Below, one piece after another: positions 2,528-43,150 of a stretch of 53,292 nt of DNA. The notes below the pieces were generated by a model, which did no database searches, was not told the DNA's origin, and saw nothing but the letters and a program-made list of their open reading frames with translations. Positions within the stretch are counted from its first letter, which is position 1; each line of letters opens with the position of its first letter. The stretch is from Nemertoderma westbladi. Taxonomy: Eukaryota > Animalia > Xenacoelomorpha. The stretch is from assembly GCA_032718475.1 (NCBI GenBank), contig JAUCBJ010007193.1, positions 1-53,292 of the forward strand, read 5' to 3'. Both the position numbers and the translations under genes were made by a program.

Positions 2528-3078
2528 TGTTAGCTTATCCAATTCCGCTAACATGAACCCACAAAGTAAGCCGTTGAGCAATATTGGGAGCACGAGGTTG
2601 ATTACCAATCAACCTCGTGTCAGCCCAGTAAACGGGGACAATAGGCCCCAAAGGAGACACACACAATAAGGGTCAGGGGCCAAACCCCTAACAGAGAGAG
2701 AACAACAGGGGCAACGGGAAACACACCAGGGAAGGTGAAAGGGCGAGAAGTGGGATATTAGCTAATGGGGGGACATCATCGACTAGGTACAGTAATATGG
2801 CCAACTGTGCAGTACATATATTACCTGTTGGTGCTTCCCTATTCAGTTTAGTTTACTCAGTCAGATCAGTAGGGTGGAACGGGGACTTCTGTCACCGTCC
2901 GCTACCGCCATCATACTTATCTACCGGTAACCGTGTCATACTATACTGTGCTATATCAGACTATTATACCTTTATATACATATTACCGAACATCAGAACT
3001 CTTTTACCTTTCACACACGGCGGGGACGCGTGGATAGAAAACCCAACGGATAAACCGGGATCCGTAGATCCCGGCACA
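2528..3078 (+). repeat. 5' LTR (551 bp)
   Basis: TGTTAGC...GGCACA. Direct repeat of 9159-9707 with about 6 substitutions and one 2-bp indel counted by eye. Confidence 0.96.
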
Positions 3079-3215
3079 GTGACAGAATCAGATCCACCCA
3101 GCTGCCCTGACAGTGACAGAATCAGATCCGCCCAGCTGCCCTGACAGAGATAGAATCCTAGCAGCTGCCCTAACAGTCTGACAGTGATAGAACTAGATCC
3201 AACCAACTGACAGAC
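3079..3215 (+). repeat. Tandem 34-bp units at the primer-binding-site position (non-TGG)
   Basis: GTGACAGAATCAGATCCRCCCAGCTGCCCTGACA occurs twice (3079, 3113), followed by two degenerate units. Confidence 0.85.
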
Positions 3216-3242
3216 TGTGGCTGCCAGCCACCAAAGACAAAG

Positions 3243-6200
3243 ATGAGTCGAGAGAAAGGAACGACACCGCCGTGGACCCCGGACAACGATCTAACGATCC
3301 GCGAGGCCACGGCGGGACGATACGAACCCACGACGCCGGTCGATGCTACGCCGACCACGTCGACGCACGTTGACGCCATGTCGATAACGAGCGACCCGGC
3401 GAACCAAGATGTGGGGGGTCGTCTACAAAGAGAAATCGAGTCGGGAGGAGAAGAGGAAGACGAGTCGACGCGGAGCGAGGGTCGACGTACCGATGTCGCC
3501 GGCCAGCCACAGGCCGAGGACAACGAACGGTCCACCGGAACGGTGACGGTGGGGCCGTCGGTACGATGTCGGACCCGGAGAGACGGAAGAGAGGTCGGCG
3601 ACGAGGACGTCGGGGTTTCTGATCGACTTCAATGAGCCTACCTCGCGACCAGGGAGCGACTGAGAGAGGCCAAAGGAGGGGCGAAGATAGACGAGGTGAG
3701 ACTGAGGAGACGACTAGGTGAGTCGAACAGATACTTTGATTACCTAGTGCGTTCTGGGCAGGGAGAACTAGCCGAGGAGAGGGCGAGGGGAGTTGCCAAC
3801 GAACTGATTGAACTATGGGAGTGTAGGGGTATGGAACCTAGCGTAGTGTACGTAGGGCCATACTTAGTCGATGCCCGGGGAGTAAAATTAGTGGGTTGGA
3901 AGAGACCTGAGGAGGGCGAATCCGAGGTTAACTCCGAGGATTCGGTCTCGTCGGTCGGAAGAAGTTCCGGGAAGCGGGGGAAAGTTGGTAGGATGGAGGG
4001 GCGACGGGAGTCTGTCGCAACCGATAAGTCTGCTACATCCTCCGCAAAAGAAAGAAGGGTGCGGGAGATAAATCTGACGTATAAAATAGAAATGGCGGCG
4101 AATAAGCAGAATGGGTTAGAGAGATAATTGAGGGATAAAACCGCATACTCAGAGAAGTTAGGAGAGTTGGCGAGGGAGTATAGAAAGAGAGTCGAGGAGC
4201 GTATGGAGCGGGAGATGAGAGTAGAGGATGAGCCGGCGAGGCGGTTTGAGATGGTTACGAGAGGGGTAGAGTTGGCCGTGCAGAGTGTACGAGAGGAGAG
4301 AGAGAGAGAGATAGAGGCAAAGCGTGAGCGGGATGATTTGCATGCCCGCCTAAGGGGGCTTATGCAATATCAAGCCAAACTGAAGTACCGACTAGAACTG
4401 GCGCGGTTGGGACTGTCAGAGAGTGAGACCCCACTTATAAGCACCGAGCGAGAAAACCAGAACTGGTGTAGCCGTACGGGCGGGGGGGGGGGGGTAATAG
4501 TAGTACGCTAGAAATAGTTAATATTAATAGTACCGTAGTAGATAACCCTAATCCCTTTATTACAGGAAATAATATTTTACCGGGTAGTAGTAATTTAAAT
4601 TTAAATACAAATATTCTAAATAATAATTTCAATTCAAACCCGCAAAATAATTCGGATAATAATTTAAGTTTAGAGAATAGTAGTGATCTAAGTAATTTAA
4701 ATAATTTAAATAATAATCCCGTTTCAAATTCTAATAATTTAATTGATTTAACAAATAATATTGGGAATGGTGCTATTAATATGAGCGTGTCGGACGTACA
4801 TAACCCGGCAGACGGGGGCCTGGTAGGCCACGTGCTTAGTAGGCAGGAGGTGGCAGGGTTGAGCCAACCCGACGGCGGCCTGGTAGGCCACGTAGTTGGT
4901 AGGCAGGAGGTAGCGGGGTTGAGCCAACCCGAGGTGGGCCACGCAGTAGTAGAGAGAGAGGCGGGGGTGAATAGACCCAGCCGTAGTAAAGACAGTGCGT
5001 CGACTAGAGAGGGGTGTAGAGACGAAGTAAGAGATAGTGAAGTTAGATGTGGCGAGTGGGGGGGGGGGGGGCTACCGGCGTCCCACCACGTAAGACTAGT
5101 GGCGAGAGAGGGGGGGCAGATAATGCCCCACAAGAGGGGTGTAGAAGTGTAGCAAGAGGTAGTGAAGTTAGAAGTGGCGAGTGGGGGGGGGGGGGGGGGG
5201 CTACAGGAGCCCCACCACAGAAGATTAGTGGCGAGAGAAGGGGGGTAGAGAATGTCCGACAAGAGGAACGTGAAAGTGCAGTAAGAGATAGTGAAGTTAG
5301 AAGTGGCGGGTGGGGGGGGGGGGGGGGGCTACGGACACCCCACCGCGAGAGGTTAGTAGAGAGAGAGGGGGGGCAGAGAGTGTCCCACAGCCGTCAGCGG
5401 ATAATGCGCGGGCCGAATCAGGAAAACCGCAACACCCGGCGACAGAGAGTAATAGGGGGATTGCGAGTGTCCCCGGCGGCGTGCGATCGAGTAGAGAGAG
5501 GCAGGTTGACGTCGCGAGAGGGCAGACGAAGCGTCGAGCCCGATTAGAAGAGGGAAGAAGAAGAGTGGAGTTTAACCGGGAGGTCGACGAGAGATCTCAT
5601 GAGCCGGAATACTGCACTGAAAAGAGAAGAAGAGGAGATAGTAGAAAAGGTCTCGCCACGAACGATAGGAGTGCGAGGACGGATAACGGACCGTCGATAG
5701 TAGAGATGGAGTCAGGGAACCAGTGGGGTCGAACTTCGGGAGATTACCGTCGCCCCGGAGAAACGCCCCGCACGCCAAGAGAGGGGTACAGGAGGTACCA
5801 ATACAAAGTCGAGAACAGGAGAAGGGATCGAAGAGAAGCTTCCCGACGGGATATAGCTGCCGATCGAGAATGCAGTAGTCGCGGGGAGATTCGAGATTCG
5901 CGAAGAATAAACTTCGGTTCGGAAGGGCACATGCAGACTGCAGGACATACTGTAGGCCTTACTGCACATACTATTATAGGCCATGCCGGGAGAGATAGAG
6001 TAGGCGATGGGGTAGCGCGAACGACGGGATAAAACCCGGAAGTCGCGGAGTACATACCGGTAGGTAGGCGAGAGGTAGGTAGGCCTATATCGGTACAGCA
6101 GCATGACTATAATACACAGGGACATAACATATACCCGGTTGAGGGGGATATTGCAGATAGATGGATGGGCCCCAATATATTAACATCAACCCCAGTACCA

Positions 6201-7094
6201 AACATAACACTGGTTGGGGGGGGACAGGGTGACATTCCCCCATTACAAAATATCCGCAGTATAAACAACCAAGAACATATAGGAGCAAGAACATCGAACT
6301 CCCTGGACGAGAACAGGTCGTGCGGACAGTCACCACCACACGCGGCCGTACAGGGGACTGCTAGTCCACAGTTAGCTGGTAGCAGGGCCACGCCGTGGCA
6401 GGGACAGGAAGAAAATAACACCAAAAATAAACACAATCCCAATATACCCAGTAGGCCGAGTCTAGACAATCGAAACATTAAATCGGTACATATAAACCTA
6501 AGCGCGATACGTGAAGGACTATACAGGAAACGCTATAATCCAGGATTCCAATGTCAATTACATCGGGACGGAACCCATAAGACCAGGAGTTGTAAGTACT
6601 GGCAAGCGTTGCCCAAACGAGATCGTGTAGCCTACACAGACGCAAACGGACTATGTCATCGATGTGTGGTAAAAGGACACAGATCCGGAGAGTGTTGGAA
6701 AGGGAGAGGATATGAAAGGACTAAACCAGGGGCAGAGAAGCCCATTAGCAAACATAAGGGAGTCGGGAAAGTAGAAGGAGGCGTGTTGCATACGCACGCG
6801 GGGCTGGCACGGTGCGAGGGGGCATTACATGGGCAGACACCGCGTATACCGAGGGACGAGCGGGGGTCGTCGAGGGCTTTAATGCCAGCGCACATACGAA
6901 GGGGGAGGCCAGCAGAGGTAGCACCGAAGAGAGTGTGGCGAAGAGTTAGAGGACGTATAGGAGGGCAGCGGGAGAGTGCCTACTGGAAGAAGGGGCACCT
7001 GAGAGTTTTTAGTCGTCCAAAGTTTTGGACTGAGGGGGGTGGGAATGAGGGCGAGACGCCCTTCCCACGCACAAAATATAAAATAATTATTTAA
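3243..7094 (+). pseudogene. Degenerate BEL-type gag-like ORF
   Basis: ORFs 3243, 3696 and 4128 share one frame, split by stops (coiled-coil-like). Frameshifts occur at poly-G runs and there is an Asn-rich tract at 4500-4780. The C-terminal part has CQLH...H...C and LCHRCVVKGHRSGEC knuckles. The protease is deleted relative to the sister copy at 20.7-21.6 kb. Confidence 0.75.
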
Positions 7095-7119
7095 TTAAAA
7101 ATAAGAAAATAATTAAATA

Positions 7120-8950
7120 ATAGAGTAGGTAGAAGTTAGGTAGTAAGAGTTAGTTAGTTAGTTAAAGGGTGGTACGTAGTACCGTTAGAGAGTAAGAGTT
7201 AGAGGGTATGCAGTACCGTTAGTGAGAGTAGAGTCAGAGAAGTTAGTAAGAAGGTACGCAGTACCGTTAGTGAGAGTAGAGTCAGAGAAGTTAGTAAGAA
7301 GGTACGTAGTACCGTTAGTTAGTGGAGTTAGAGAAGTTAGTTAGAGGGTACGTAGTACCGTTAGTTAGAGTAGTGAGAGGGTACGTAGTACCGTCAGTTA
7401 GAGAGTTAGTTAGAGGGTACGTAGTACCGCTAGTCAGTTAGAGAGTTAGTTAGAGGGTACGTAAGTACCGTTAGTTAGAGGAGAGTTAGAGGGTACGTAA
7501 GTACCGTTAGTCAGTTAGAGAGTTAGAGGGTACGTAAGTACCGCTAGTTAGTTAGAGGGTACGTAAGTACCGTTAGTTAGTTAGAGAGTTAGAGGGTACG
7601 TAAGTACCGCTAGTTAGAGGAGAGTTAGAGGGTACGTAGTACCGTTAGTTAGTTAGAATTAGAGGGTACGTAGTACCGTTAGTAGAGGGCACGGGCGTGA
7701 TGACGTGTTTGATGTAAGAGCAGGGTATGTTAATTAGGGTGGGTGCCGGGCACAAGAGGTGCCGGGCACAAGAGGTGCCGGGCACAAAAAGAGTTAGTAG
7801 TAGAGTTAGTTGAGTTAGTAGTAGAGTTAGTTGAGTTAGTAGAGAGTTAGTGGAGTTAGTAGAGTTAGTAGAGAGTTAGTAGAGTTAGCAAGAGTTAGTA
7901 GTAGTTCACATAATTAACGTACCCGCTCTGCCGGCATTCAGAGCGTCACGTGCAGGCGAGTGGATGTAAAGGAAGTAAGTTAGAGATAGAGTAGAGTAGC
8001 AGAGAGGGCACATAGGGTGCCAGGTAGTAAAGTTAGAGATAGAGTAGAGTAGTAGAGAGGGCACATAGGGTGCCAGGTAGTAGAGTAGAGTGTTAGAGGT
8101 AGCAGAGAGGGCACATAGGGTGCCAGAGAGTAGAATAGTAGAGACGGGCACATAGGGTGCCAGGTAGTAGAGTTAGAGAGTTAGAGATAGAGTAGAGAGG
8201 GCACATAGGGTGCCAGGTAGTAGAGTAGAGTGTTAGAGGTAGCAGAGAGGGCACATAGGGTGCCAGAGAGGAGAATATTAGAGACGGGCACATAGGGTGC
8301 CAGGTAGTAGAGTTAGAGAGTTAGAGATAGAGTAGAGTAGTAGAGACGGGCACATAGGGTGCCAGGTAGTAGAGTTAGAGATAGAGTAGAGCAGTTGAGA
8401 GGGGTAGTAGAGTAGAGCAGAGAGGGCACATAGGGTGCCAGGTAGTAGAGCTAGAGAGGTAGTTGAGTAGTAGAAGGGCACATAGGGTGCCAGATAGTAG
8501 AGTGGTTGTGGGCACCGCAAGCGCCACGTAGTGAGAAGAGTGGGTAGAGTTAGGGAGTTCTAGTTAAAGGGCTAGAGAATTGGTAGACTTAGATGAGTCA
8601 AGTAGAGTTAGTAGAAGTAGAGAGCTAGTAGGAGTTAGTTAGACTTAGTAGTTCTAGTTAGAGTTAGTAGAAAGTTAGAGGCTTTAGTTAGAGCCAGAAG
8701 TAGTGAGAGTTAGCGGAGAGTAGAGTTAGTAGTTAGTAGAGTTAGATAGTTAGAGTTAGTAAGCAGTAGGTAGATGGTATGATAGCACAGGGGTAGCATT
8801 AGAGGTCAGGGCCTTAGAGAGTGGCAGAGATTAGAGAGGAGATAGTGAGAGAAGCTGTTGGCGAGAGGGAAGAGTGCGATTCAGGTGTGGGGAGAGGGTA
8901 AGAGCGAGTTGAGTCAGAGAGCGGAGTTAGAGTGGTGAGAGTGTTGGGGA
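7120..8950 (+). repeat. Purine-rich, C-poor 3' region with hairpin-motif arrays
   Basis: About 14 GGTACGT(A)AGTACC units (7171-7680), 3 GTGCCGGGCAC (7743-7785) and 10 GGCACATAGGGTGCC (8007-8490), set in AGAGTTAGT-type spacers. Confidence 0.92.
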
Positions 8951-9149
8951 AACAAAAATTGTGTGAGAGAAGCGCACGATCGGCCCGACACGAGACGCCA
9001 GAGGGTAGTGACATCATACCCATAGGGAGCGGCCTGGAAAGCCGACTCCGAAAAAATAGACCCACCCCACACCCGATACTAGATCGGGATCCAGCGGAAT
9101 TGTAGCGCACTTTTTGGTGGATGCTATCTTCTCACCGGGAAGATAGCAT

Positions 9150-9158
9150 GGGGGGGAG
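9150..9158 (+). promoter_or_regulatory. Polypurine tract
   Basis: GGGGGGGAG directly abutting the TG of the 3' LTR. Confidence 0.85.
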
Positions 9159-9707
9159 TGTTAGCTTATCCAATTCCGCTAACATGAACCCACAAAGTAA
9201 GCCGTTGAGCAATATTGGGAGCACGAGGTTGATTACCAATCAACCTCGGGTCAGCCCAGTAAACGGGGACAATACGCCCCAAAGGAGACACACACAATAA
9301 GGGTCAGGGGCCAAACCCCTAACAGAGAGAGAACAACAGGGGCAACGGGAAACACACCAGGGAAGGTGAAAGGGCGAGAAGTGGGATATTAGCCAATGGG
9401 GGGACAGCATCGACTAGGTACAGTAATATGGCCAACTGTGCAGTACATATATTACCTGTTGGTGCTTCCCTATTCAGTTTAGTTTACTCAGTCAGATCAG
9501 TAGGGTGGAACGGGGACTTCTGTCACCGTCCGCTACCGCCATCATACTTATCTACCAGTAACCGTGTCATACTATACTGTGCTATATCAGACTATTATAC
9601 CTTTATACATATTACCGAACATCAGAACTCTTTTACCTTTCACACACGGCGGGGACGCGTGGATAGAAAACCCAACGGATAAACCGGGATCCGTAGATCC
9701 CGTCACA
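9159..9707 (+). repeat. 3' LTR (549 bp)
   Basis: TGTTAGC...GTCACA followed by TSD ACATA. Confidence 0.96.
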
Positions 9708-10410
9708 ACATATGCCATCATCGACTCAATATGATCACTGGATGTCTCATGCTGCTCGAGGCGTGTATGAGCATGGGTCCAGTCACTGAATCCAGTTACA
9801 AGTTGTTGGTGACGCAGTGTACAAAAGAGCTTACAAACTAAACAGTATACATAACCATTGTATGGACTAAAGCACAACCATGTGCACTTGGAAGACTTTG
9901 TGTTCTTTAGCTTGCGTTCAAACATGCTCATACCACACTTCCGAGCTACTGAACGTCCTTCCTTCAGAACTGTCTGCACTGCGGACAGTTCAAGTGACTT
10001 TGGATCCTCATGCTGTAGCTTGGACACATTCAAGTTATCCACAGCATCAATTTGAACGTGTCAGTAAGTTTATCTGGCCACAGGCCGACATCACATTCAA
10101 CAAGCAGCACTTTAGGTTCCATCTCTGGATCTTGCTGCACATCTATGTCTCCCTCTTGGACCTCACAGTCCGAGTCCGTACCTGGTAAATAACTGGAGCC
10201 AGCATCACATTGCGATTCCAAACCGTCATCACTCTCAACTTCACTTACTGCTGCACCTGTCACTGGTCCAAAGAAAGCTGTAAGTGGCTGTGTTCCTGCA
10301 ATACCCGCAGATTCCTTGCATCTCCTCTCTTTACATTTTTCATGGCCAGACATTTGCTTTCTTTGCTTTCGTTTCTTTTCAATGTGTCGGTCTGCTGATC
10401 GGTCTGCCAT
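9708..10410 (-). pseudogene. hAT transposase N-terminus with TTF-type zinc finger (ZMYM1-like), frameshifted near 10040
   Basis: ATG at 10410 and a basic N-terminus (KKRKQRKQMSGHEK), then WLCFSPYNGYVYCLVCKLF...GFSDW...HETSSDH. Confidence 0.88.
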
Positions 10411-12988: not shown

Positions 12989-13710
12989 GTAATAATTAAC
13001 GCAAAGATATGATTAGGTAGGCCTACGTGATATTACTGTATTAATTTCTCAAACCAATCCTCCATTGACGTCAAATATATCCAATTTCTCAATCCATACT
13101 AATCCGTATGTAATAATGCAGTAATGTACACTGTAATGCAATACCGGTAATGTCAATGTCCATGTCCAACCAAACAATGCGTTGAGTGTTATCGGACCAG
13201 CCTCCGAGAAATGTTAGGCTAACGGCACCTCGTGCCTCGCTCTGTTGCATCAGTTTTTGTAGTGGTCAGGTGGTCTAGTTCCAGGCTACCAGAATCCGTT
13301 AGGCCTAGTGCATGATATAGAATCAGCACATCCTGACATCTGTGCAATTCCTGAACTCAGGCGAGCATTTTACAGATGGTGGTCTAATTTATATGGTCTT
13401 GTACCGCGAAACCGTGTATTATTTACAGACGTAGGCTAAATTTCGGGTCTTGTACCGTGCACAGTACTGGTGGGCCTACACAGCTACTGCTATTTTGCCT
13501 AATACAGGTCCCAGAGGTAAATCCTTACCCCACAGGCTGTTACCTCTCTGACTGACAGCGCAACAGCCCTCTCTCCTAAACCACTGTCCTTTCCTGTAAG
13601 TTATTCTGTTAATTTTTTTCATAATTTTTGAGTGTTGAGTGGTGGAGGCCCCTCAGTGGCAGAGGCCCTTGAGCACGTGCACACTGTGCGCATTGGGTAA
13701 TCCAGCACTG

Positions 13711-14261
13711 CTCAGAACCGTCGGCCCTCATAAAGGATCAGCAACTGAACTTCCTACACCGAATGAATGCCTCTCAGAACTGTCGGCGCTCATAAAGGAT
13801 CGGCAACTGAACTTCCTACACCGAATGAATGCCTCTCAGAACCGTCGGCCCTCAAAGGATCGGCAACTGAACTTCCTACACCAACTGAATGCCTCTCAGA
13901 ACCGTCGGCCCTCATAAAGGATCGGCAACTGAACTTCCTACACCGAATGGACACCTCACAGAACCGTCGGCCTTCATAAAGGATCGGCAACTGAACTTCC
14001 TACGCCGAATAAACACCTCTCAGAACCGTAGGCCCTCATAAAGGATCGGCAACTGAACTTCCTACACCGAATGAATGCCTCCCTGAACCGTCGGCCCTCA
14101 TAAAGGATCGGCAACTGAACTTCCTACACCGAATGGACACCTCACAGAACCGTCGGCCTTCATAAAGGATCGGCAACTGAACTTCCTACGCCGAATAAAC
14201 ACCTCTCAGAACCGTAGGCCCTCATAAAGGATCGGCAACTGAACTTCCTACACCGAATGAA
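13711..14261. repeat. 62/60-bp satellite, block 1
   Basis: Unit AAGGATCGGCAACTGAACTTCCTACACCGAATGAATGCCTCTCAGAACCGTCGGCCCTCA(TA). Confidence 0.97.
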
Positions 14262-16404
14262 CCCTGCAAACAATGTATTGTTAAAAAGCTGTTATTAAAA
14301 TGTTATTTAATGACATAGATAACATTATTTCAAATTGTTAGATTAATGGTAAAAAAACTGTAAATTGGCCAAGAAATATGACGTTATATACTAACGTTAT
14401 TATTTCGTTTTTAATAACATTAAAATAACAAAGCCAGGATGGTTACATATATCATTACTTTTATGTTATTCCTCATCATTATTATTGTGTTTTTATTGAC
14501 ATTAAAATAACAACGGCGTAATGTTTATTTAGATCGTTAATTTTATGTTATTTCTTAACATAAAAATATTGTTTGCTAAAAACGTAACATTATACGTACA
14601 TTTAAGCCCTTCTCTCATGTTTTATGGTTGGTTCGCTTGCTCAAACTAATAATCCCCCTCCATTGCCGTTCCTTATATCGTTCTTTATAATTGCCAAACC
14701 CTTTATTGAATAATTAATTAATAATTTCCCTATGCATGTTGATATGGTAGTGGCAGGCTACAATCTCTAACACAGTTTGATTGAATACAATTTTGTTGTA
14801 GGCAATTGTATGCAAATTAATAACAATTAAAACGTTTAACATGAATTGAATTTTTTGTATAATGACCAGTCAGGAACAAATAATGAAATAAACAGCAAAA
14901 TCAAAGTAAAATATCGCAGAATAAGTAAAACAACAAATATATGGCTGTATGGCCCATTATGTAAATGGTTTTGATATTTCGGTTAAAGTTAATTACAGAC
15001 TTAAAAAGAATATGTTTATGACGTAATAATAAGTGACAACAACGTAATGAATTGCATCAATTAAAATACTTTGAGTTAATATTATTCACTAGATTTATAG
15101 ATCTAATTTGTAGACTATATAAAATAATGTACATAGTGGGTTTAATAAATAATACCTCACAACAATGTTAAATTATTAAAAGGAGCAGGTTACAGTTGGC
15201 TACAGAGGCACATTATTATATCCTACGGGTAAACAAAAAAAAACAGGTTACAGATTTATTTCTGGGAGAGTAATCAGTACTTATTTGAATCGATATCTCC
15301 CTGGAGAGGGATGATTTTGATTGCATCGCAAATCCTCTCTATCTGAACAAATCATATTTAAAAAATTAAATGTTAATTATAATTATAGCTGAGTGAGCTT
15401 CATTTATTAAACTGTAAAAATAAATCAATAGGCCTAGGCCCTACAAAAGTACAATCTAAAAACTGAAACAATAAATAGTTTGTAATAACAGTTAATGTGA
15501 AGTTTTCAAATCGAAATCGAATCGAAAGTTTTGTAGTAATGCTGTCCCTGTGCCCTGCCCCTTCAACTGAAAACTGGGACCTCCCAATAATAAGAATTCC
15601 AATCTTTAGTCCTCGGCTGTTGAAATCCACCATCAGTACAGACAAATAAGTCAATCCTCCACCTGTCAGTTCTGGTTTAAGGGGACTTTCTGGTCCTGGC
15701 AGACTTGAATTCTGTAATTGGTAGGTCTAATGCAGTAATGTGTGAATCCAGAGGGTAAAGGCTAACTCGCATTCAGGTAGATATGTTTTATTTATGAGTT
15801 CAGGTTAAATAAATCACAAAACCAAAACTATAAAACCAAAAATATAAGCTACTGTACAGAGCAGTAGGCCTGCAGTAACTACACTACAGTAATATAGAGA
15901 TAGGCCTTGCAGTACAGCAGTATAACAATACATATACACAATAAACATTGAATACAGGCATGACAGAATGAGTATTGTACAACATACCATACTGTATACC
16001 ATTTACATGTGGAAAATTCCTCCATTACCGCGAATTTTAAAATTAGCCAATCATCAATCTCAGATTGGATAATAGAAGTGACAGCGTCTATCGCATAATG
16101 TTTATTTTATGTGACAAAATAACATTGTTCTGATATGTAACAAACCATGTTCTTAAAATGTTAGAACTAAACACTTATAAAACATTTTTGACTAATGTTT
16201 ATGTTCTCACATTATAATTACGTTTTTTTAACATCAACAGTTATCATTTATTTAATGTCTGACAAAGACATTATAGAGTAATGTTAAAATAACATATATT
16301 GAACATCTAAATATTCTATCAAACAAGGGAATAACATTTATCAACATTTATAACAAATTAATGATGTTTTTCTGACATTCCTTGAAAGTAAATTGTTTGC
16401 AGGG
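14262..16404. mobile_element. Non-autonomous EnSpm/CMC-type DNA transposon
   Basis: 13-bp TIR CCCTGCAAACAAT/ATTGTTTGCAGGG. 2-bp TSD AA is proven by the satellite register (GAATG-AA-TGCC). Many AACATT/AATGTT subterminal motifs; no transposase ORF. Confidence 0.88.
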
Positions 16405-19400
16405 AATGCCTCTCAGAACCATCGGCCCTCATAAAGGATCGGCAACTGAACTTCCTACACCGAATGAATGCCTCTCAGAACCGTTGGCCCTCATAAAGGA
16501 TCGGCAACTGAACTTCCTACACCGTATGAACGCCTCCCAGAATAGTAGGCCCTCATAAAGGATCGGCAACTGAACTTCCTACACTGAATGAATGCCTCTC
16601 AGAACCGTCAGCCCTCATAAAGGATCAGCAACTGAACTTCCTACACCAAATGAACGCCTCTCAGAACCGTCGGCCCTCATAAAGGATCGGTAACTGAACT
16701 TCCTACGCCGAATGAACGCCTCTCAGAACCGTCGGCCGTCAAAGGATCGGCAACTGAACTTCCTACACCGAATGAATGCCTCTCAGAACCGTCGGCCCTC
16801 ATAAAGGATCGGCAACTGAACTTCCTACACCGAATGAATGCCTCTCAGAACCGTCGGCCCTCAAAGGATCGGCAACTGAACTTCCTACACCGAATGAATG
16901 CCTCTCAGAACCGTCGGCCCTCATAAAGGATCGGCAACTGAACTTCCTACACCGAATGAATGCCTCTCAGAACCATCAGCCCTCAAAGGATCGGCAACTG
17001 AACTTCCTACACCGAAGGAATGCCTCTCAGAACCGTCGGCCCTCAAAGGATCGGCAACTGAACTTCCTGCACCGAATGAATGTCTCTCAGAACCATCAGC
17101 CCTCATAAAGGATCGGCAACTGAACTTCCTACGCCAAATGAACGCCTCTCAGAACCATCAGCCCTCATAAAGGATCGGAAACTGAACTTCCTACACCGAA
17201 TGAGCACCTCTCAGAACCATCGGCCCTCATAAAGGATCAGCAACTGAACTTCCTACACCGAATGAATGCCTCTCAGAACTGTCGGCCTTCATAAAGGATC
17301 GGTAACTGAACTTCCTACACCGAATGAATGCCTCTCAGAACCGTCGGCCCTCATAAAGGATCGGCAACTGAACTTCCTACACCGTATGAACGCCTCCCAG
17401 AATAGTAGGCCCTCATAAAGGATCGGCAACTGAACTTCCTACACCGAATGAATGCCTCTCAGAACCGTCGGCCCTCATAAAGGATCGGCAACTGAACTTC
17501 CTACACCAAATGAATGTCTCTCAGAACCAGCGGCCCTCATAAAGGATCGGCAACTGAACTTCCTACACTGAATGAATGCCTCTGAGAACCGTTGGCCCTC
17601 ATAAAGGATCGGCAACTGAACTTCCTACACCGAATGAACGCCTCTCATAACCGTCAGCCCTCATAAAGGATCTGCAACTGAACTTCCTACACCAAATGAA
17701 TGCCTCTCAGAACCATCAGCCCTCAAAGGATCGGCAACTGAACTTCCTACACCGAAGGAATGCCTCTCAGAACCGTCGGCCCTCAAAGGATCGGCAACTG
17801 AACTTCCTGCACCGAATGAATGTCTCTCAGAACCATCGGCCCTCATAAAGGATCGGCAACTGAACTTCCTACGCCAAATGAACGCCTCTCAGAACCATCA
17901 GCCCTCATAAAGGATCGGCAACTGAACTTCCTACGCCGAATGAACGCCTCTCAGAACCGTCGGCCCTCAAAGGATCGGCAACTGAACTTCCTACACCGAA
18001 TGAATGCCTCTCAGAACCGTCGGCCCTCATAAAGGATCGGCAACTGAACTTCCTACACCGAATGAATGCCTCTCAGAACCGTCGGCCCTCAAAGGATCGG
18101 CAACTGAACTTCCTACACCGAATGAATGCCTCTCAGAACCGTCGGCCCTCATAAAGGATCGGCAACTGAACTTCCTACACCGAATGAATGCCTCTCAGAA
18201 CCGTTGGCCCTCATAAAGGATCGGCAACTGAACTTCCTACACCGAATGAATGCCTCTGAGAACCGTTGGCCCTCATAAAGGATCAGCAACTGAACTTCCT
18301 ACACCGAATGAATGCCTCTCATAACCGTCGGCCCTCATAAAGGATCTGCAACTGAACTTCCTACACCAAATGAATGCCTCTCAGAACCATCAGCCCTCAA
18401 AGGATCGGCAACTGAACTTCCTACACCGAAGGAATGCCTCTCAGAACCGTCGGCCCTCAAAGGATCGGCATCTGAACTTCCTGCACCGAATGAATGTCTC
18501 TCAGAACCATCGGCCCTCATAAAGGATCGGCAACTGAACTTCCTACACCGAATGAATGCCTCTGAGAACCGTTGGCCCTCATAAAGGATCGGCAACTGAA
18601 CTTCCTACACCGAATGAACGCCTCTCATAACCGTCGGCCCTCATAAAGGATTGGCAACCGAACTTCCTACGCCGAATGAATGCCTCTCAGAACCGTCGGC
18701 CCTCATAAAGGATCGGCAACTGAACTTCCTACACCGAATGAATGCCTCTCAGAACCGTCGGCCCTCATAAAGGATCGGCAACTGAACTTCCTACACCGAA
18801 TGAATGCCTCTGAGAACCGTTGGCCCTCATAAAGGATCGGCAACTGAACTTCCTACACCAAATGAACGCCTCTCAGAACCGTCGGCCCTCATAAAGGATT
18901 GGCAACCGAACTTCCTACGCCGAATGAATGCCTCTCAGAACCGTCGGCCCTCATAAAGGATCGGCAACTGAACTTCCTACACCGAATGAACGCCTCTCAG
19001 AACCATCAGCCCTCATAAAGGATCGGCAACTGAACTTCCTACACCAAAAGAATGCCTCTCAGAACCGTCGGCCCTCAAAGGATCGGCAACTGAACTTCCT
19101 ACACCGAATGAATGCCTCTCAGAACCTTCGGCCCTCATAAAGGATCGGCAACTGAACTTCCTACACCGAATGAATGCCTCTCAGAACCGTCGGCCCTCAA
19201 AGGATCAGCAACTGAACTTCCTACACCGAATGAATGCCTCTCAGAACCGTCGGCCCTCATAAAGGATCGGCAACTGAACTTCCTACACCGAATGAATGCC
19301 TCTGAGAACCGTTGGCCCTCATAAAGGATCGGCAACTGAACTTCCTACACCGAATGAACGCCTCTCATAACCGTCGGCCCTCATAAAGGATCGGCAACTG

Positions 19401-19627
19401 AACTTCCTACACCAAATGAATGCCTCTCAGAACCATCAGCCCTCAAAGGATCGGCAACTGAACTTCCTACACCAAAATAATGCCTCTCAGAACCGTCGGC
19501 CCTCAAAGGATCAGCAACTGAACTTCCTACACCAAATGAACGCCTCTCAGAACCATCGGCCCTCATAAAGGATTGGCAACTGAACTTCCTACACCGAATG
19601 AATGCCTCTCAGAACCGTCGGCCCTCA
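16405..19627. repeat. 62/60-bp satellite, block 2 (~52 units)
   Basis: Same unit, in register with block 1. Confidence 0.97.
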
Positions 19628-22208
19628 CTTTGAACTCTAACTTCTCACTCTAACTCCATTTACTCTATCTAACTTCACTCTGCTCTATCTCACCCTCGGA
19701 CCTCTCTGTCCCTTACTCTCTCTCTCTCTCTCTCTCTCTCACTACTCGCTCCCCACACTTGAATTGCACTCGTCTGCACTCTCTCACGCGCCCACACCAC
19801 CTCTCAATATCTTCTCCCGTCTGTGCTATTATCATTCTTACTTACTACTTACTTGCTACTTACTACTTACTTCTTCACTCTACTAACTCTGCTAACTTTA
19901 TTAACTATACTAACTCTACTAACCCTCTTACTCTCTACTAACTCTCCACCTCTACTAACGGTACCGTCCTACTCTCTTTCTACGTGGCGCTTTCGGTGCC
20001 CACCACCCCTCTACTCTCTTTCTACGTGGCGCTTTCGGTGCCCACAACATCTCTACTACTACTTTCCATGTAGCGCTTCCGGTGCCCACAACCCCTCTGC
20101 TACTACTCGTGGTATGTCAATATACCACACTCCCTTACTGCCTACTTCTAACGGTACTACGTACCCCTCTACTCCCGTGGTATGTTTATATACCACACTC
20201 CCTAATCTGCCTGCTTCTAACTAACTCCTCTTACTTTCTCTTACTCTTACTAGCTTCTACTAACTTTCTTACTACTTACTGTCTAACTATCTACTAACTA
20301 TCTGACTATCTATCTACTTATTTTATTATTTATTATTTATTTTATTTTAATTTCTTATTTGTGTGGGAAGGGCGTCTCGCCCTCATTCCCACCCCCCTCT
20401 GTCCAACATTCGGACAACTAAACTCTAAGGTGCCCCTTGATCTTCCATCGTTCCTTCCAGGAGGCATTCTCCCACTGCCCCCCTGTAGCTCCTCTTATTC
20501 TTCATCCCACTCTCCTCGTCAATTCCAACTCTCTAGGAATTGATTCTCCCTCTTCTGCCACCCTAAAATCGGGTCTCTCTGCCACCTTCTTAACTTCCTC
20601 ATCTCCTGCAGCAAAATGCCACCCTTCATCTGGTCGTCGCCTGCCGGTAGAATGAAAAGAAATCGGAAGAATAGATAAAACAGAACGGACAGTACTAATC
20701 CTATCCCTTTCCACCCTGTCTTCTTACTCGACCTCCCCCTTTTCGGTATGCCTCTCAACCGGACCGGTGTCTCTTCCGGGCACTCCTCTGGACACTCCTC
20801 CGGACTGTTGTCCTCCGGACATCTCGCCGTCCACTCCTCTCCATCCCCATACCGATACTTGATGGGAACATCCTTGTTCCATCCCATTGTCTCTAAGTCT
20901 TCCGCGTCGAATCCTTCTCCTCCGCCCATTCTCTTGCTGTTACTTCTCCTTCTAGCTTATCTACCATCTCTAGTTTCTTCTCTGCGTCCTCAATGGTGCC
21001 TGGTAGCATGCACCCTGATGTCTCCGACACCCTGGATGGAATCTTGGTTTTAATTGGGCCGCTAAGCGTCCATCCGAACGGCGTGAGAATCGCCGTTGGA
21101 TCCCGCTGTCTGTCTTCCCCGAAGATCGTCTGTACTCTTTCGTGGGCCGTCAGGCAGTCCATACCCACTATGATGGATACCTTCGAGATGTCCACTTCCG
21201 GTATTGAGAAATCGATATCGTCCAGGAACCGGTATTGCTCGACCTCGATGTTAGTTGGTCTCCTGGCATTTATATTGATCGATTCTATTATCTGTATGGG
21301 GTCGATGGTTGCCCCTTAGTCACATCCCGGTGCTATTGCTGATATCTTGCACCGTCCCGTCCTCATCTCCAGGACCTCATCCTTACTCGAGATGGTAGTT
21401 ACCGCCATCTTACTCGGCCTCGTCTGAAACCCTATCTCCTCGGCCACCCAATTCTCCACCAGCGTGAAGGCTGCTCCGCTGTCGACCAGCATCAATGTTG
21501 TGACTGATCGGCCACCCCTTCCTGTTATCTTCACTGGTACTACCCCGAGTAGTACTTTCCTCTTTCTTCTTGCTCCTGTCGTGCTCGTAGCCATTGTTTG
21601 GCCTCCAGTCTCATCGTCTCCTATTGCTGTTTCTCTACACTCTCCAGATCTGTGTCCTTCTACCACGCATCGATGACATAGTCCGTTTGCATCCGCGTAG
21701 GCTACACGATCTTGTTTGGGCAACGCTTGCCAGTGCTTACAACTCATGGTCTTATGGGTTCCGTCCCTATGAAATTGACATTCGAATCCTGGATTGTAGC
21801 GTTCCCTGTATAGTCCTTCACGTATCGCGCGTAGGTTTATATCTACCAATTTAGTGTTTTGGTTATTTGGACTCGGCCTACAGGGTGTGTTGGGATTTTG
21901 TTTGTTCGTGGTGTTATTTTCTTTCTGTCCCTGCCACGGTGCGGCCCTACTCACCACTAACTGTGGGCTTGTAGCCCCCTGTGTGGCCGCGTGTGGTAGC
22001 GACTGTCTTAGTCTCGGAAAAGGATCTGCCGGATTATGTTAGGGTTTAGGCCTGTTGTATTCGGTCTTTGGCGCCTTCCCCAAACTATCCTCACTATAGA
22101 CTGGGTCTGTAATCAACTCTGCTTCATAGTTGAGGAAGTTCAACATTTCCTCTAAGCCCGGTTCCGCACCTTTCTTCTTCCGGGTGGAGAAGGCGATCTT
22201 CCTCCACT
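19628..22208 (-). mobile_element. LTR-less internal fragment of a diverged sister of the non-autonomous BEL family (gag C-terminus, aspartic protease, purine-rich 3' region)
   Basis: LCHRCVVEGHRSGEC; VLLGVVPVKI...MLVDSGAAFTLV (protease DSG); IIVGMD...TPFGWTLSGP. Shares its C-terminus and GGTACGTAGTACC motifs with 6330-7200. In-frame stops are present. Confidence 0.9.
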
Positions 22209-22646
22209 GGATCGGCAACTGAACATCCTACGCCGAATGAATGCCTCTCAGAACCGTCGGCCCTCATAAAGGATCGGCAACTGAACATCCTACGCCGAAT
22301 GAATGCCTCTCAGAACCGTCGGCCCTCATAAAGGATCAGCAACTGAACTTCCTACACCAAATGAACGCCTCTCAGAACCATCAGCCCTCATAAAGGATTG
22401 GCAACTGAACTTCCTACACCAAATGAATGCCTCTCAGAACCGTCGGCCCTCATAAAGGATCAGCAACTGAACTTCCTACACCAAATGAACGCCTCTCAGA
22501 ACCGTCGGCCCTCCCTCATAAAGGATCGGCAACTGAACTTCCTACACCAAATGAACGCCTCTCAGAACCGTCGGCCCTCATAAAGGTTCGGCAACTGAAC
22601 TTCCTACGCCGAATGAACGCCTCTCAGAACCGTCGGCCCTCATAAA
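22209..22646. repeat. 62/60-bp satellite, block 3
   Basis: Same unit resumes at GGATCGGC. Confidence 0.96.
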
Positions 22647-23300
22647 GCACCAGTGTCTGGACCAGTATCTGTACCAGGTGTCTGCCACAGTGTCTGAACC
22701 AGTGTCTGCATCATGTTTCTGCACCAGGTATCTGAATCTGTACCAGTGTCTGGACCAGGTAGATGTCTGCATCAGGTGTCTGTACCAGTGTCTTTACAAG
22801 GTGTCTGCACCAGTGCCTGCACCAGTGTCTGGGCCAGGTGGGTGTTTGAACCGGTGTCTGCACCAGTGTCTGTACCAGGTGTCTGCACCAGTGCCAGCAC
22901 CAGTGTCTGGACCAGGTGGGTGTTTGAACCGGTGTCTGCACCAGTGTCTGAACCAGGTGTCTGCACCAAGTGTCTGCATCAGGTGTCTGGACCTGGTAGG
23001 TGTCTGCACCAGTGTTTGCATAAAGTTTCTGTACCAGGTGTCTGCATCACTGTCTCACCACGTGTCTACATCAGGACTCTGCACCAGGTGTATGTACCAG
23101 TAGTGTCTGCACCAGGTGTCTTCACCAGGTGTCTGCACCATGAGTCTGCACCAATGTCTGCACCAGTGTCTGCATCAGGTGTCTGCAGCAGTGTCTGAGC
23201 TAGAGTCTGCACCAGGTGTCTGCATCAGGTGTCTGCACCAGTGTCTGCATCGGGTGTCTGCACCAAGTGTCTGCATCAGGTGCCTGGACCTGGTAGGTGC
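22647..23300. repeat. Degenerate 12/13-bp minisatellite (GTGTCTGCACCA[G])n
   Basis: Direct inspection; ends in a poly-C run at ~23300-23310. Confidence 0.92.
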
Positions 23301-23501: not shown

Positions 23502-24997
23502 ACTACTACTAGGATCGGCATGCTGCATTGCAGCTGCATTTTTAAGAATGCTGTGCCGTCTTATCGACAAAATTGCACCGCCACAACTCCCTATCACACA
23601 TGACATTTGCTAGATCATCCGCATCTTCAAGGCCAGTGTCCTTTAAGATGCATCTCAAGAAAGTCATGGGCTGTCCACCATGCTTATTCACTCCATGAGG
23701 CTGCCAAAGTACAAGATTATGCACTGGTTGGTCCTCACGGCGAAAGCAATGTCCTGCAAAGCGGAGGCGATTTTGTTCTAGTGTCAAGCTTGGGGGAACC
23801 AATGAGACACCTCCAATGTTATATAGTGTCTGGTTGGAGATGTGTGCATTGTACTCGACACAATGAACCCGGCGTAGCATTCTTGTGAATGTGCCATCCA
23901 CAGATTTGGTGTCCTCAGCTGTTAGAGCCCAGCATGGACTCCCATAGAGGAGTACTGGAACTACTGCTGCTCTAAATAATCGGACCTTAAGTTTCCGATT
24001 AATTCTCGGTGACTTCCAAATCATGGAAAGCCTATTCAAGGCTGCCCATGCCTTTCCCTTACGTATTCGAAGGTCCCCACCTGACTTCCGGATCCATGAT
24101 CCCAGGTAAAAGAAGTCATCCACATGCTCAAGCATACCATCTTTTGAGCTTATGCTCATCCGATCAGAGACTTGCTGAGGACTTTCAAAGTTAACTTAAA
24201 AGTTAACTTTCAAAATGTTGGTCTTTCTGGAGTTAATAAAAAGACCAACACTAGAAGCAGCATGTACTAATGAGCTGAGGAGCCGTTGGGCTCCCTCTAG
24301 TGATTCTGAGAGTACTCCTAAGTCATCTGCAAAGTCTAGATCAGTTAGGTACTTGGCAGGATTTCCTCGACTTCTGGAGCCAGTAGGTGGAGTTATCATC
24401 ACCCCATCATCATTATGATGATCTAAGGACATGCGTAGAACATAGTCAACCACAATTATGAACAAGAATGGTGCAAGTGTGTCTCCCTGGAGGACGCCCC
24501 ATAACACTTCAAATGGTTCTGTGTCACCGTCAACAGTAGACACAAATGTTGTCGAACCATCGTATACTGATCTGATTGCTGCAATAATTTCATCAGGAAT
24601 CCCATATAATGAAAGTATGCTGAACATACGTGAGCGAGAGACTGAATCAAAGGCCTTGAAGAAGTCAACAAAGATAACAGCCAGATGCCTGTCTTTCTTT
24701 ATTGATAACTCTTCAATTATCCTTCTAAGTGCCAAAATGGACTCCATGGTCCCACGACCTTTACGGAACCCATTCTGATTTCCACGGAGCAGTCTCTCAA
24801 TGGGATCCCTGATGCGATTTAATAGAATTATATTGTATAGCTTTGGAGCAATCGAGATCAATGAGATTCCCTGAAAAGAACCATAGAGTGTTAGGTTGCC
24901 CTTCTTGGGAACTGGCACCAACTTATTTGTTTTCATTTCTTGTGGGACTCTTGTTGTTCGGTACATGTCTACTATGATGGGATAGATGAGCTTTAAA
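23502..24997 (-). mobile_element. 5'-truncated RTE-clade LINE (reverse transcriptase, one in-frame stop at 24196)
   Basis: QNGFRKGR, FVDFFKAFDSV, GVLQGDTLAPFLF, DLDFADDL and FFYLGSW motifs. Short 3' UTR and (TAG)n tail at ~23502-23511. Flanked by 159-bp direct repeats. Confidence 0.92.
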
Positions 24998-25156
24998 CCA
25001 CCATGCTTATTTACTCCATGAGACCGCCAAACTGGCCAAAGCACAACAATATGCACTAGCTGGTCCTCACGGCGAAACCAATGTCCTACAAAGCGGAGGC
25101 GGCTTTGTTCTAGAGATTTGGTTCTAACGAAGCAAATCAGCTTCTGAAGTGGAGAT
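24998..25156. repeat. 159-bp direct repeat (long TSD) of 23343-23501
   Basis: CCACCATGCTTATT...GAAGTGGAGAT; one mismatch seen. Confidence 0.93.
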
Positions 25157-25556
25157 GATTTGTTAACAAATATTGGCGATTTGAGTTTCTGAATCGTAAA
25201 GATTTAAACATATTAATTCAAAAATACATCAATACCAACAGCAAATAACCACAGAATCGTATTTATCTGAAAAAATGTGAAATTGTAACAATTTAAAACT
25301 TAGAGTTGAGTTATTTATAACATTGATTACAGGTAAACTAAATAGGAAAGTTTCTTAAAACAAATATTACAAAATATAATATGATATTACATTCCTGAAT
25401 TAGATGACGGCCGTTCTGTTTAGCGAATTAAGTACCGGTATATATAACAGAAACAGCTAAGTAAAATATGTTAAACTAATATTATTGCACTGGCTATATT
25501 GGGTTCCCAGTTGAGTTTCAAGTAGTAGAAGGAGACCGGAAGTTATATAAAACATT

Positions 25557-26170
25557 CGGAAGTGACGTAATAGGAAACTGCGGAAGTGACGTAATAGGAA
25601 ACTACGGAAGTGACGTAATAGGAAACTGCGGAAGTGGCGTAATAGGAAACTGCGGAAGTGGCGTAATAGTGAACTACGGAAATGACGTAATAGTGAACTA
25701 CGGAAGTGACGTAATAGTGAACTACGGAAGTGACGTAATAGTGAACTACGGAAGTGGAGTAATAGTGAACTACGGAAGTGACGTAATAGTGAACTACGGA
25801 AGTGGAGTAATAGTGAACTCCGGAAGTGACGTAATAGAGAACTACGGAAGTGACGTAATAGTGAACTCCGGAAGTGACGTAATAGTGAACTACGGAAGTG
25901 ACGTAATAGTGAACTACGGAAGTGACGTAATAGTGAACTACGGAAGTGGAGTAATAGTGAACTCCGGAAGTGACGTAATAGTGAACTACGGAAGTGACGT
26001 AATAGTGAACTACGGAAGTGACGTAATAGTGAACTACGGAAGTGGAATAATAGTGAACTACGGAAGTTACGTAATAGTGAACTACGGAAGTGACGTAATA
26101 GTGAACTACGGAAGTGACGCAATAGTGAACTACGGAAGTGACGTAATAGTGAACTACGGAAGTGAGGTAA
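25557..26170. repeat. 24-bp minisatellite (~25 units) carrying an ETS-CRE composite motif
   Basis: Unit CGGAAGTGACGTAATAGTGAACTA. Confidence 0.95.
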
Positions 26171-26365: not shown

Positions 26366-26485
26366 ACAACTAGGTATAATAATAAGAAAAGATACACCCC
26401 TGCTGGGGGAAATAGATGTTAAAATAAATAACTAAATAAAAGGGCACCATTGCAGTACTAAAATATTATTATGCAGTAAAATAAA

Positions 26486-41400: not shown

Positions 41401-42949
41401 CGGGTGTTAGCAATCAGTTAGGTGAGATGGTTCGGGTGTTAGCAATCAGTTAGGTGAGATGGTTCGGGTGTTAGCAATCAGTTAGGTGAGACAGTTCGGG
41501 TGTTAGCAATCAGTTAGGTGAGTTGGTTCGGGTGTTAGCAATCAGTTAGGAGAGATGGTTCGGGTGTTAGCAATCAGTTAGGTGAGATGGTTCGGGTGTT
41601 AGCAATCAGTTAGGAGAGACGGTTCGGGTGTTAGCAATCAGTTAGGTGAGATGGTTCGGGTGTTAGCAATCAGTTAAGTGAGACGGTTCGGGTGTTAGCA
41701 ATCAGTTAGGTGAGATGGTTCGGGTGTTAGCAATCAGTTAGGTGAGATGGTTCGGGTGTTAGCAATCAGTTAGGAGAGATGGTTCGGGTGTTAGCAATCA
41801 GTTAGGTTAGACGGTTCGGGTGTTAGCAATCAGTTAGGTGAGACGGTTCGGGTGTTAGCAATCAGTTAGGTGAGACGGTTCGGGTGTTAGCAATCAGTTA
41901 GGTGAGACGGTTCGGGTGTTAGCAATCAGTTAGGTGAGACGGTTCGGGTGTTAGCAATCAGTTAGGTGAGACGGTTCGGGTGTTAGCAATCAGTTAGGTG
42001 AGACGGTTCGGGTGTTAGCAATCAGTTAGGTGAGACGGTTCGGGTGTTAGCAATCAGTTAGGTGAGACGGTTCGGGTGTTAGCAATCAGTTAGGTGAGAT
42101 GGTTCGGGTGTTAGCAATCAGTTAGGAGAGATGGTTCGGGTGTTAGCAATCAGTTAGGTTAGACGGTTCGGGTGTTAGCAATCAGTTAGGTGAGATGGTT
42201 CGGGTGTTAGCAATCAGTTAGGTGAGACGGTTCGGGTGTTAGCAATCAGTTAGGTGAGACGGTTCGGGTGTTAGCAATCAGTTAGGTGAGACGGTTCGGG
42301 TGTTAGCAATCAGTTAGGTGAGACGGTTCGGGTGTTACCAATCAGTTAGGTGAGATGGTTCGGGTGTTAGCAATCAGTTAGGTGAGATGGTTCGGGTGTT
42401 AGCAATCAGTTAGGTGAGATGGTTCGGGTGTTAGCAATCAGTTAGGTGAGATGGTTCGGGTGTTAGCAATCAGTTAGGTGAGACGGTTCGGGTGTTACCA
42501 ATCAGTTAGGTAGGAGAGACAGTTCGGGTGTTAGCAATCAGTTAGGTGAGACGGTTCGGGTGTTAGCAATCAGTTAGGTGAGATGGTTCGGGTGTTAGCA
42601 ATCAGTTAGGTGAGATGGTTCGGGTGTTAGCAATCAGTTAGGTGAGACGGTTCGGGTGTTAGCAATCAGTTAGGTGAGACGGTTCGGGTGTTAGCAATCA
42701 GTTAGGTGAGACGGTTCGGGTGTTAGCAATCAGTTAGGTGAGATGGTTCGGGTGTTAGCAATCAGTTAGGTGAGATGGTTCGGGTGTTACCAATCAGTTA
42801 GGTAGGAGAGACAGTTCGGGTGTTAGCAATCAGTTAGGTGAGATGGTTCGGGTGTTAGCAATCAGTTAGGTGAGATGGTTCGGGTGTTAGCAATCAGTTA
42901 GGTGAGACGGTTCGGGTGTTAGCAATCAGTTAGGTGAGATGGTTCGGGT
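26486..42949. repeat. 32-bp satellite array, ~16.4 kb (~510 units)
   Basis: Unit GTTAGGTGAGATGGTTCGGGTGTTAGCAATCA; highly homogeneous and uninterrupted. Confidence 0.99.
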
Positions 42950-43075
42950 ATAGAATTATATTCCCTAAATGCCGTGGATTTTCAAAATTTTATTTTATTC
43001 GGATTAACTTTGTAAAAGATTGCTTTGAGTTCTCATTCGTATTGGTTCTATCATTTGTGCATCTATCGGTCAAGT

Positions 43076-43150
43076 GGTTCAGTAGCTCAGTTGGTAGAGC
43101 GTTGGAAATTATATGTGTAGTAGGTATCGAGTTCGAATCCTAGTAAGTGC
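43076..43150 (+). pseudogene. tRNA-derived sequence with intact A and B boxes
   Basis: TAGCTCAGTTGGTAGAGC (perfect D-arm) and GAGTTCGAATCC. The acceptor and anticodon stems do not pair. Confidence 0.7.

Follow-up and report, generated by a model that had tools for sequence, protein, structure and literature searches.

The RNA of a high-copy, defective LTR element of Nemertoderma westbladi (positions 2528-9707) probably primes its own minus-strand DNA synthesis, with reverse transcriptase that an autonomous partner would supply; this is the reading that best fits the sequence. The window, the whole stretch of DNA that was analysed, comprises 53,292 nt of the forward strand of contig JAUCBJ010007193.1 (GCA_032718475.1). 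Since the right-hand boundary of the LTR is determined by the minus-strand primer in elements of this kind (according to the available part of PMC7175516), the 3' end of a primer is expected within a few bases of the LTR end, and any priming RNA must pair at about position 3079. The segment 2887-2895, inside the 5' LTR, does exactly this.

Architecture and BEL/Pao origin of the element

Comparison of the window with itself identified an LTR pair that is about 98.5% identical over 551 nt. The 5' LTR (2528-3078, 551 nt) and the 3' LTR (9159-9707, 549 nt) both begin with TG and end with CA, a polypurine tract (9150-9158) adjoins the latter, and a 5-bp target-site duplication, ACATA, was read directly on either side (2523-2527 and 9708-9712; all on the plus strand). 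The interior has no long open frame. A plus-strand gag remnant (6033-7094) with BEL/Pao-type zinc knuckles at about 6507-6701 was recognised by tblastn, by a weak Pfam zf-CCHC_3 match and by 88% DNA identity to 21637-22007 on the minus strand. When 79 proteins, all from BEL/Pao elements, were used as tblastn queries against the window, they matched the focal element in the zinc-knuckle region only (about 6500-6700, E values down to 4e-6), and the same queries detected no protease, reverse transcriptase (RT), RNase H or integrase in 3079-9158.

A second fragment of the same family, on the minus strand at about 19630-22210, is 88% identical to the focal element over 371 bases and carries both knuckles and an aspartyl protease, which Pfam assigns to generic knuckle and aspartyl protease families; BEL/Pao proteins match its minus strand at 21046-21807 with E values down to 4e-22. 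The fragment ends in a short integrase-like tail, lacks RT and RNase H, and has a 62-bp satellite on both sides. Because the BEL/Pao matches are limited to the gag knuckles and to this knuckle-protease fragment of the same family, the focal element is, judged by its sequence, BEL/Pao-derived and non-autonomous and is not a complete BEL/Pao member. The BEL/Pao derivation given in the preliminary description is thus upheld by the gag and knuckle matches, and, as the queries were BEL/Pao proteins only, the superfamily call rests on these matches together with the knuckle pattern. Features of BEL/Pao elements that we found are the TG...CA LTR pair, the polypurine tract, the target-site duplication and the Gag/protease homology; no remnant of a pol region with RT, integrase and a Peptidase_A17 RNase H, ordered PR-RT-RH-IN, was detected, and an 18-nt tRNA-complementary primer site is absent. 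A search among long proteins only returned no homologs of the family's gag-protease fragment at an E value of 0.001, protein scans of viral contigs returned no relatives, and the LTR pattern had 0 matches in metagenome contigs.

The window also contains a BEL/Pao element of another family (45660-53292), with frames of 1802 aa and at least 753 aa, DUF1759 and Peptidase_A17, and a frame change inside RT at about 51034-51068. Upstream of it lie splice-like donors (44340, 44626) and, near 45109, a T-run that resembles an acceptor and ends in CAG; direct and spliced scans for its primer site gave nothing convincing, its 3' LTR being outside the window and its 5' LTR ends not fixed. The motif TCAGAACT is common to the focal LTR (2991-3001) and to two sites upstream of this neighbouring element (43978-43988 and 45110-45121). 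At 1-1502, a gag sequence 95.8% identical to 47520-48559 is joined, at about 1130-1144, to the A/G-rich 3' non-coding repeats of the focal family (88% to 7650-7898), and this chimera suggests recombination between two BEL families. Repeats include a 32-bp satellite of about 510 copies (26467-42950), three blocks of a satellite of about 62 bp (13700-14262, 16404-19627 and 22209-22647) and a repeat with an 18-bp period (25539-26170). Broken non-LTR reverse transcriptase frames, RTE-like by appearance, occupy the minus strand at 23542-25203, and tRNA-like A-box and B-box motifs at 43075-43145, where ARAGORN calls no tRNA, possibly represent a SINE head.

Pairing between the LTR and the leader, its conservation and a predicted competing fold

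No TGG primer-binding site follows the 5' LTR. The nine nucleotides at 3079-3087, GTGACAGAA, which form the candidate non-tRNA primer-binding site, stand 0 nt from the terminal CA of the LTR and are the exact complement of TTCTGTCAC at 2887-2895, the predicted 3' end of the self-primer, for which the family contigs list no substitution; cleavage is predicted at 2895|2896. Both points, made in the preliminary description, held when the sequence was re-read and the coordinates were checked. The same is true of the colinear helices reported beyond the 9-mer, all of which appear in the minimum-energy folds of 2845-3112, 2845-3300, 2859-3300 and 2845-3500. The helices concerned are 2887-2895 with 3079-3087, 2872-2878 with 3093-3099, 2867-2870 with 3101-3104 (3 Watson-Crick pairs and one G-U) and 2860-2864 with 3107-3111. 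The 5' arms of the three anchoring helices (within 2860-2878) have pair probabilities of 0.96-1.00 in folds of the first register, in which the first leader unit is the partner. Two additional 5-bp helices, 2896-2900 with 3024-3028 and 2905-2909 with 3019-3023, have probabilities of 0.90-0.94 in these folds, and no substitution is listed in their 5' arms (2896-2909); together with a terminal LTR hairpin at 3055-3074 (probability 0.98-0.99), which has the position of a U5 stem-loop, they flank the proposed cut.

The leader is repeat-prone and consists of four related units. Unit 1 (3079-3112, 34 nt) holds the primer site and the 3' arms of the anchoring helices; unit 2 (3113-3146) is its tandem copy with one A>G change and offers a second pairing register, in which, as had been described, G3130 in place of A3096 converts the U-A pair with 2875 to U-G. 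Two degenerate further units (3147-3215), with anti-primer motifs at 3147 and 3184, form duplexes of -36.4 and -29.0 kcal/mol with 2856-2896. There are five similar anti-primer motifs, and one alone sits at the LTR end. Folding of 2845-3150, which the preliminary description had proposed as a check, gave a z-score of -2.21; in this fold the second unit is the preferred partner. Across the six folds that hold both repeats, the second register is preferred in three (2845-3150, 2845-3230 and 2700-3300), and the z-score of -2.57 for 2845-3230 is, like that of 2845-3150, modest for the whole region. A pair of the pretzel type known from Tf1, 3030-3035 with 3092-3097, is seen in second-register folds only and overlaps variable sites. 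Neither a splice-junction primer nor an LTR intron was found in the focal element, and an Rfam match to mir-236 (E 0.17) fell below threshold and was rejected.

The pairing exceeds what shuffled sequences provide. Of 2000 dinucleotide shuffles of the LTR, 1 yielded a complement of 9 nt that begins directly behind the LTR, and the energy of the 35-nt duplex (-39.8 kcal/mol, against -25.4 +/- 2.9 for shuffles) was reached by 0 of 1000 shuffles and by 0 of 295 internal 35-mers. The upstream extension of the pairing was matched in 1 of 300 shuffles, and when the criterion was relaxed to offsets of 0-4 and to direct or spliced pairing, 4 of 200 shuffles reached the 9-mer by itself. A scan of viral contigs for the spaced complement pattern returned a single match, which had no LTR context and was rejected as chance.

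The position of this pairing within the transcript is predicted from motifs. As noted previously, TATA-like and Inr-like motifs lie upstream of the LTR partner: a TATA-like motif (2815-2823, CATATA from 2815) is situated 30 nt 5' of a start predicted at 2845 within the Inr-like TCAGTT (2843-2848), and an alternative Inr-like TCAGTC (2857-2862) predicts a start at 2859. By these motifs alone, transcription would begin 28-42 nt upstream of the 9-mer. In sequencing run X4, likeness to the focal LTR begins at 2843 in one diverged contig and at 2850 in two, and these breakpoints weakly hint at a start nearby. The LTR contains neither AATAAA nor ATTAAA, so R is undefined. Run X6, whose type was guessed as RNA, covered U3 only and carries no evidence on expression.

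Copies of the family were compared in five of seven public sequencing runs, of which none is recorded as RNA, all used as assembled contigs, which drop rare forms. The family is abundant, with 1493 contigs of run X1 aligning to 901 bases. In that run, contig depth, a sum that is not a copy number, reaches 63,000-82,000 in the bins of 2856-2907 against 6,000-10,000 at 2934-2959, and the partner block 2856-2907 and the interval 2999-3037 are the two most widely shared parts of 2830-3200. At a threshold of 1%, the sole substitution listed in 2843-2915 is G2883>T (23-33% of depth, four runs), which lies in a loop and adds a pair; at the primer site itself, C3083>T (in three runs, at 22-29% of the summed contig depth) still allows pairing, as G-U. 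With the core set defined from the fold of this copy, and a weaker helix broken by T2984>A excluded from it, 1 of 13 substitution sites in 2845-3111 falls within the 84 core paired positions of 267 (P 0.047). Substitution and indel sites taken together place 1 of 20 distinct sites there (P 0.004), a tally that includes 10 listed indel sites and leaves aside 28 further indel entries. Variants close to contig ends are hidden, as illustrated by the G/T difference at 3074, which is evident from the LTR pair and absent from the variant list. As to covariation across copies, a check that the preliminary description had proposed, the partner block is nearly invariant, the single change listed for the core preserves G-U pairing, and no two-sided compensatory change was seen. 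Among the family contigs, from which rare forms drop out, there was also no joint in which the primer had been copied past the 9-mer and no strand-changing joint.

A competing fold is predicted within the LTR. A decoy copy of the primer site at 3030-3039, with one bulged base, is a predicted alternative partner of 2887-2895 and would form a continuous long hairpin with 2887-2909; among its variants in the family are T3035>C and the deletion of a single base at 3033. Position 3074 is G in the 5' LTR; its counterpart in the 3' LTR is T, which is also the letter in the loose ends of family contigs. In models with T at 3074 the decoy captures the primer segment, and the primer helix, 0.9 kcal/mol less stable than the minimum, has a probability of 0.11. 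A further change, G3032>A or C3083>T, lowers this to 0.01-0.03, and G2883>T brings it back to 0.65-0.96 (at 37 C). The variants at 2883, 3032, 3074 and 3083 are unphased, so that the modelled combinations may not co-occur. The 2872-2878 helix has a probability of 1.00 in every variant fold. From these models we infer that either a protein chaperone would be needed for the primer helix or the two folds would act as a switch, in which case the decoy at 3030-3039 is possibly an RNA switch.

Primer sites of related elements

The preliminary description had suggested a screen of curated BEL families for complementarity between the primer site and their own LTR, and we made a comparison of this kind on the loci of coding relatives. 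An alignment of 34 homologs led to 66 metagenome loci and 27 loci from genome contigs (93 in total). The LTR ends could be read through the terminal repeat in 17 of these, of which 15 were tested; L024 (ambiguous end) and L071 (the contig cuts the 3' LTR) were left out, and four of the tested loci (L022, L029, L041 and L090) have manually adjusted ends. The 27 loci L068-L094 are BEL/Pao loci in contigs of bacterial genome records, and are most likely animal host DNA binned with symbiont genomes.

Complementarity of 11-15 nt to the own LTR was found in 10 of the 15 relatives. Three (L021, L037 and L079) have TGG within 0-5 nt of the LTR, and a self-complement is present in 10 of the 12 that lack it, beginning 0-3 nt after the LTR. 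In nine relatives (L002, L005, L022, L033, L038, L076, L077, L083 and L090) the 11-15 nt are complementary to a predicted exon-exon junction in the own LTR, at a level reached by 0-2 of 200 shuffles each; the predicted introns mostly have GTAAG donors and pyrimidine-rich acceptors, the splicing itself being a prediction. In the tenth, L029, 11 contiguous nt are complementary to the own LTR (1 of 200 shuffles). The strict test was failed by L074, with 11 nt and one mismatch across a junction, and by L041, with 13 nt at offset 6. As L033/L090 and L076/L077 are close pairs, the ten represent about eight independent families. The letters of the primer site differ between these families, a pattern that one tRNA common to all of them would not produce. 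By eye, a junction-complementary primer site also appears in L010, L016, L026, L028, L061, L067 and L071.

Pairing that extends beyond the core is clear in few of the relatives: it was reached, in 300 shuffles each, 1 time for L002, 6 for L033, 8 for L083, 17 for L090, 19 for L038 and 30 for L077; it is absent in L005, L022, L029 and L076. For L002 and L083, the spacing of TATA and Inr motifs predicts a first exon of about 5-6 nt, in which case the spliced RNA would supply its first 11-12 nt as the primer, an arrangement like that of Tf1. The focal element resembles L029 in its contiguous complement and L002 and L033 in its extra colinear helices, whereas its core of 9 nt is shorter than the 11-15 nt of the relatives.

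In a quick RT tree of 88 rows, in which 8 of 20 labels were set by eye and L090 and the window's own elements were left out, a branch with support 94 has all three TGG elements on the same side, and 3 changes suffice to explain the labels, where shuffled labels need 4.8 on average (0 of 200). The focal family was not placed in the self-priming clade because the window holds no RT of this family and the scores of its gag-protease fragments are similar for both groups (at most 55 and 52 bits with self-complementary relatives, at most 44 and 48 with those of the tRNA type). We consider it an even proposition that self-priming has taken the place of tRNA priming in a large clade of BEL/Pao elements of marine invertebrates, mostly through LTR splicing and 11-15 nt of pairing, and that the focal element is an intron-less form of this, with a capped fragment of 37-51 nt, four helices and a decoy switch.

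Proposed priming mechanism, alternatives and known systems

Under self-priming, transcription would start near 2845 (or 2859) and the first 37-51 nt of the RNA would fold onto 3079-3111, where cleavage at 2895|2896, for which the RT's RNase H domain would be responsible if the analogy with Tf1 holds, would free a 3' end paired to 3079. The RT, supplied in trans, would then copy the stretch from 3078 to 2896 and transfer to the 3' LTR, a step that would require R to extend beyond 2896. The outer helices may hold the cut fragment in place and compensate for the short 9-bp core, and the decoy at 3030-3039 may hide the primer segment until the RNA refolds. Of the arguments that bear on this proposal, the TGG-less site, the pairing, the conserved partner block and the 10 of 12 relatives support it. 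Against it stand the unseen compensation, a primer helix that is not dominant with T at 3074, the second register preferred in three of six folds, the short core, the undefined R and the tRNA primers that the ICTV lists for the family.

Other explanations of the same pairing were weighed against self-priming. That a 3'-truncated host tRNA-Arg primes at 3079, with the LTR-leader fold merely positioning, protecting or regulating the site, seems unlikely to us, although tRNA-Arg is among the BEL/Pao primers listed by the ICTV (PMC8742986) and relatives of the tRNA type exist (3 of 15). The Arg-type site of 412/mdg1 elements shares 7 letters with 3079-3085, and C3083>T would keep a G-U pair with tRNA-Arg too, for which reason that variant does not discriminate. 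The tRNA would, however, have to lose 8 nt including its CCA, and the self match of 9 nt and 16 further pairs stands against a tRNA-Arg match that ends after 7 nt. The helix moreover covers the bases that a tRNA would require, and in each of ten relatives, whose primer-site letters are unrelated, the site matches the element's own LTR. ARAGORN found 0 tRNAs in the window and 0 in the 28 scanned of the 93 related loci, and none of the 98 matches to the Arg-type motif in viral contigs lay within a tRNA. Slightly less probable again is a role of the fold in packaging, dimerisation, translation or stability, with another RNA or a protein as the primer. The outer helices are stable (1.00 in all variant folds) and the primer helix marginal, as such a role would have it, and just one of the five anti-primer motifs is at the LTR end; yet this explanation leaves the missing tRNA site unexplained, and it does not account for the place of the complement, directly behind the LTR in the focal element and within 0-3 nt of the LTR end in 10 relatives.

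It is improbable that the element's own RNA primes without a cis cut of the Tf1 type, as an abortive 5' transcript, a fragment of a dimer partner or a processed 3' LTR end. Complementarity is the same in cis and in trans and the 3' LTR has the identical 9-mer, but a polyadenylation hexamer is absent upstream of 2895, and the nested helices and those flanking the cut form readily in cis. We give very little credence to a neutral inverted duplication or chance match of no function: the repeat-prone leader and the modest z-scores (-2.2 to -2.6) would suit it, and the shuffle tests, the conservation across copies and the exact register with the LTR end argue against it.

If the reading of self-priming in the focal element is correct, it would make BEL/Pao the third LTR superfamily with this mechanism, after Ty3/gypsy, where it has been shown for Tf1, and Ty1/copia, where it is predicted. 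It would explain why no primer site can be recognised in elements of this sort and would offer an easy test for annotation, and the predicted RNA end at 2895|2896 is precise and can be checked. It also raises the question of how an RT would cut deep inside its own RNA instead of after nucleotide 11. The preservation of the fold in a high-copy, non-coding family points to a cis signal needed for mobility. The C. elegans element Cer7 has reportedly been proposed to encode its own tRNA-like primer.

The replication of BEL/Pao elements is poorly understood and is assumed in the ICTV profile to be primed by host tRNA, at a primer site of 18 nt complementary to tRNA-Arg or tRNA-Gly (PMC8742986). A description of self-priming in BEL/Pao was not found in the literature covered, mostly as titles and abstracts. 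The main texts of three BEL/Pao papers and one network review (PMC554778, PMC3118150, PMC6238403 and PMC2774666) make no mention of PBS, tRNA or priming, and the available parts of PMC3601003, PMC8220671, PMC11042837 and PMC6934838 add nothing on BEL/Pao priming. Like the Belpaoviridae (Semotivirus), the focal element has TG...CA LTRs in the range of 0.2-1.2 kb, a polypurine tract, a total length within 4-10 kb and gag knuckles; unlike them, it has no 18-nt tRNA site, and pol is absent from the focal copy (PMC8742986).

Self-priming has been described for Tf1/sushi elements and predicted for Tcn1 (Ty3/gypsy) and the copia TAR lineage, as far as the accessible portions of PMC6317226 and PMC4600332 extend. 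For TAR/Houba/Osr-1 (Ty1/copia) and Tcn1 it was likewise deduced from complementarity alone, 0-5 nt after the LTR; these are plant and fungal lineages of other superfamilies, and the survey used a minimum of 10 bp, compared with the uninterrupted 9 bp of the focal element (PMC6317226, in the portion available).

The closest parallels are with Tf1/Tf2/Tj1 and the Tf1/sushi group, which, according to the parts available of PMC7175516, PMC10085805 and PMC4600332, likewise have no tRNA site, a sequence behind the LTR that complements the RNA of their own LTR, flanking duplexes and a stem-loop at the LTR end. In Tf1, the RNA's initial 11 bases pair with the primer site, and cleavage by RNase H falls between bases 11 and 12 (PMC7175516, same part), and the primer helix sits within a structure of three duplexes (PMC10085805, same part). 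Where the Tf1 primer comprises these first 11 nt, that of the focal element would be a fragment of 37-51 nt whose last 9 nt pair at the LTR edge; and where both side duplexes of the Tf1 'pretzel' use LTR sequence downstream of the primer, the leader-side helices of the focal element use upstream sequence and are nested and colinear (both contrasts drawn with the same parts of these sources). Tf1/sushi elements are Ty3/gypsy chromoviruses, whereas the focal element is BEL/Pao-like and non-autonomous, and a Pfam scan of 11 frames found no chromodomain. The focal element would work like Tf1 but is not a member of the Tf1/sushi group.
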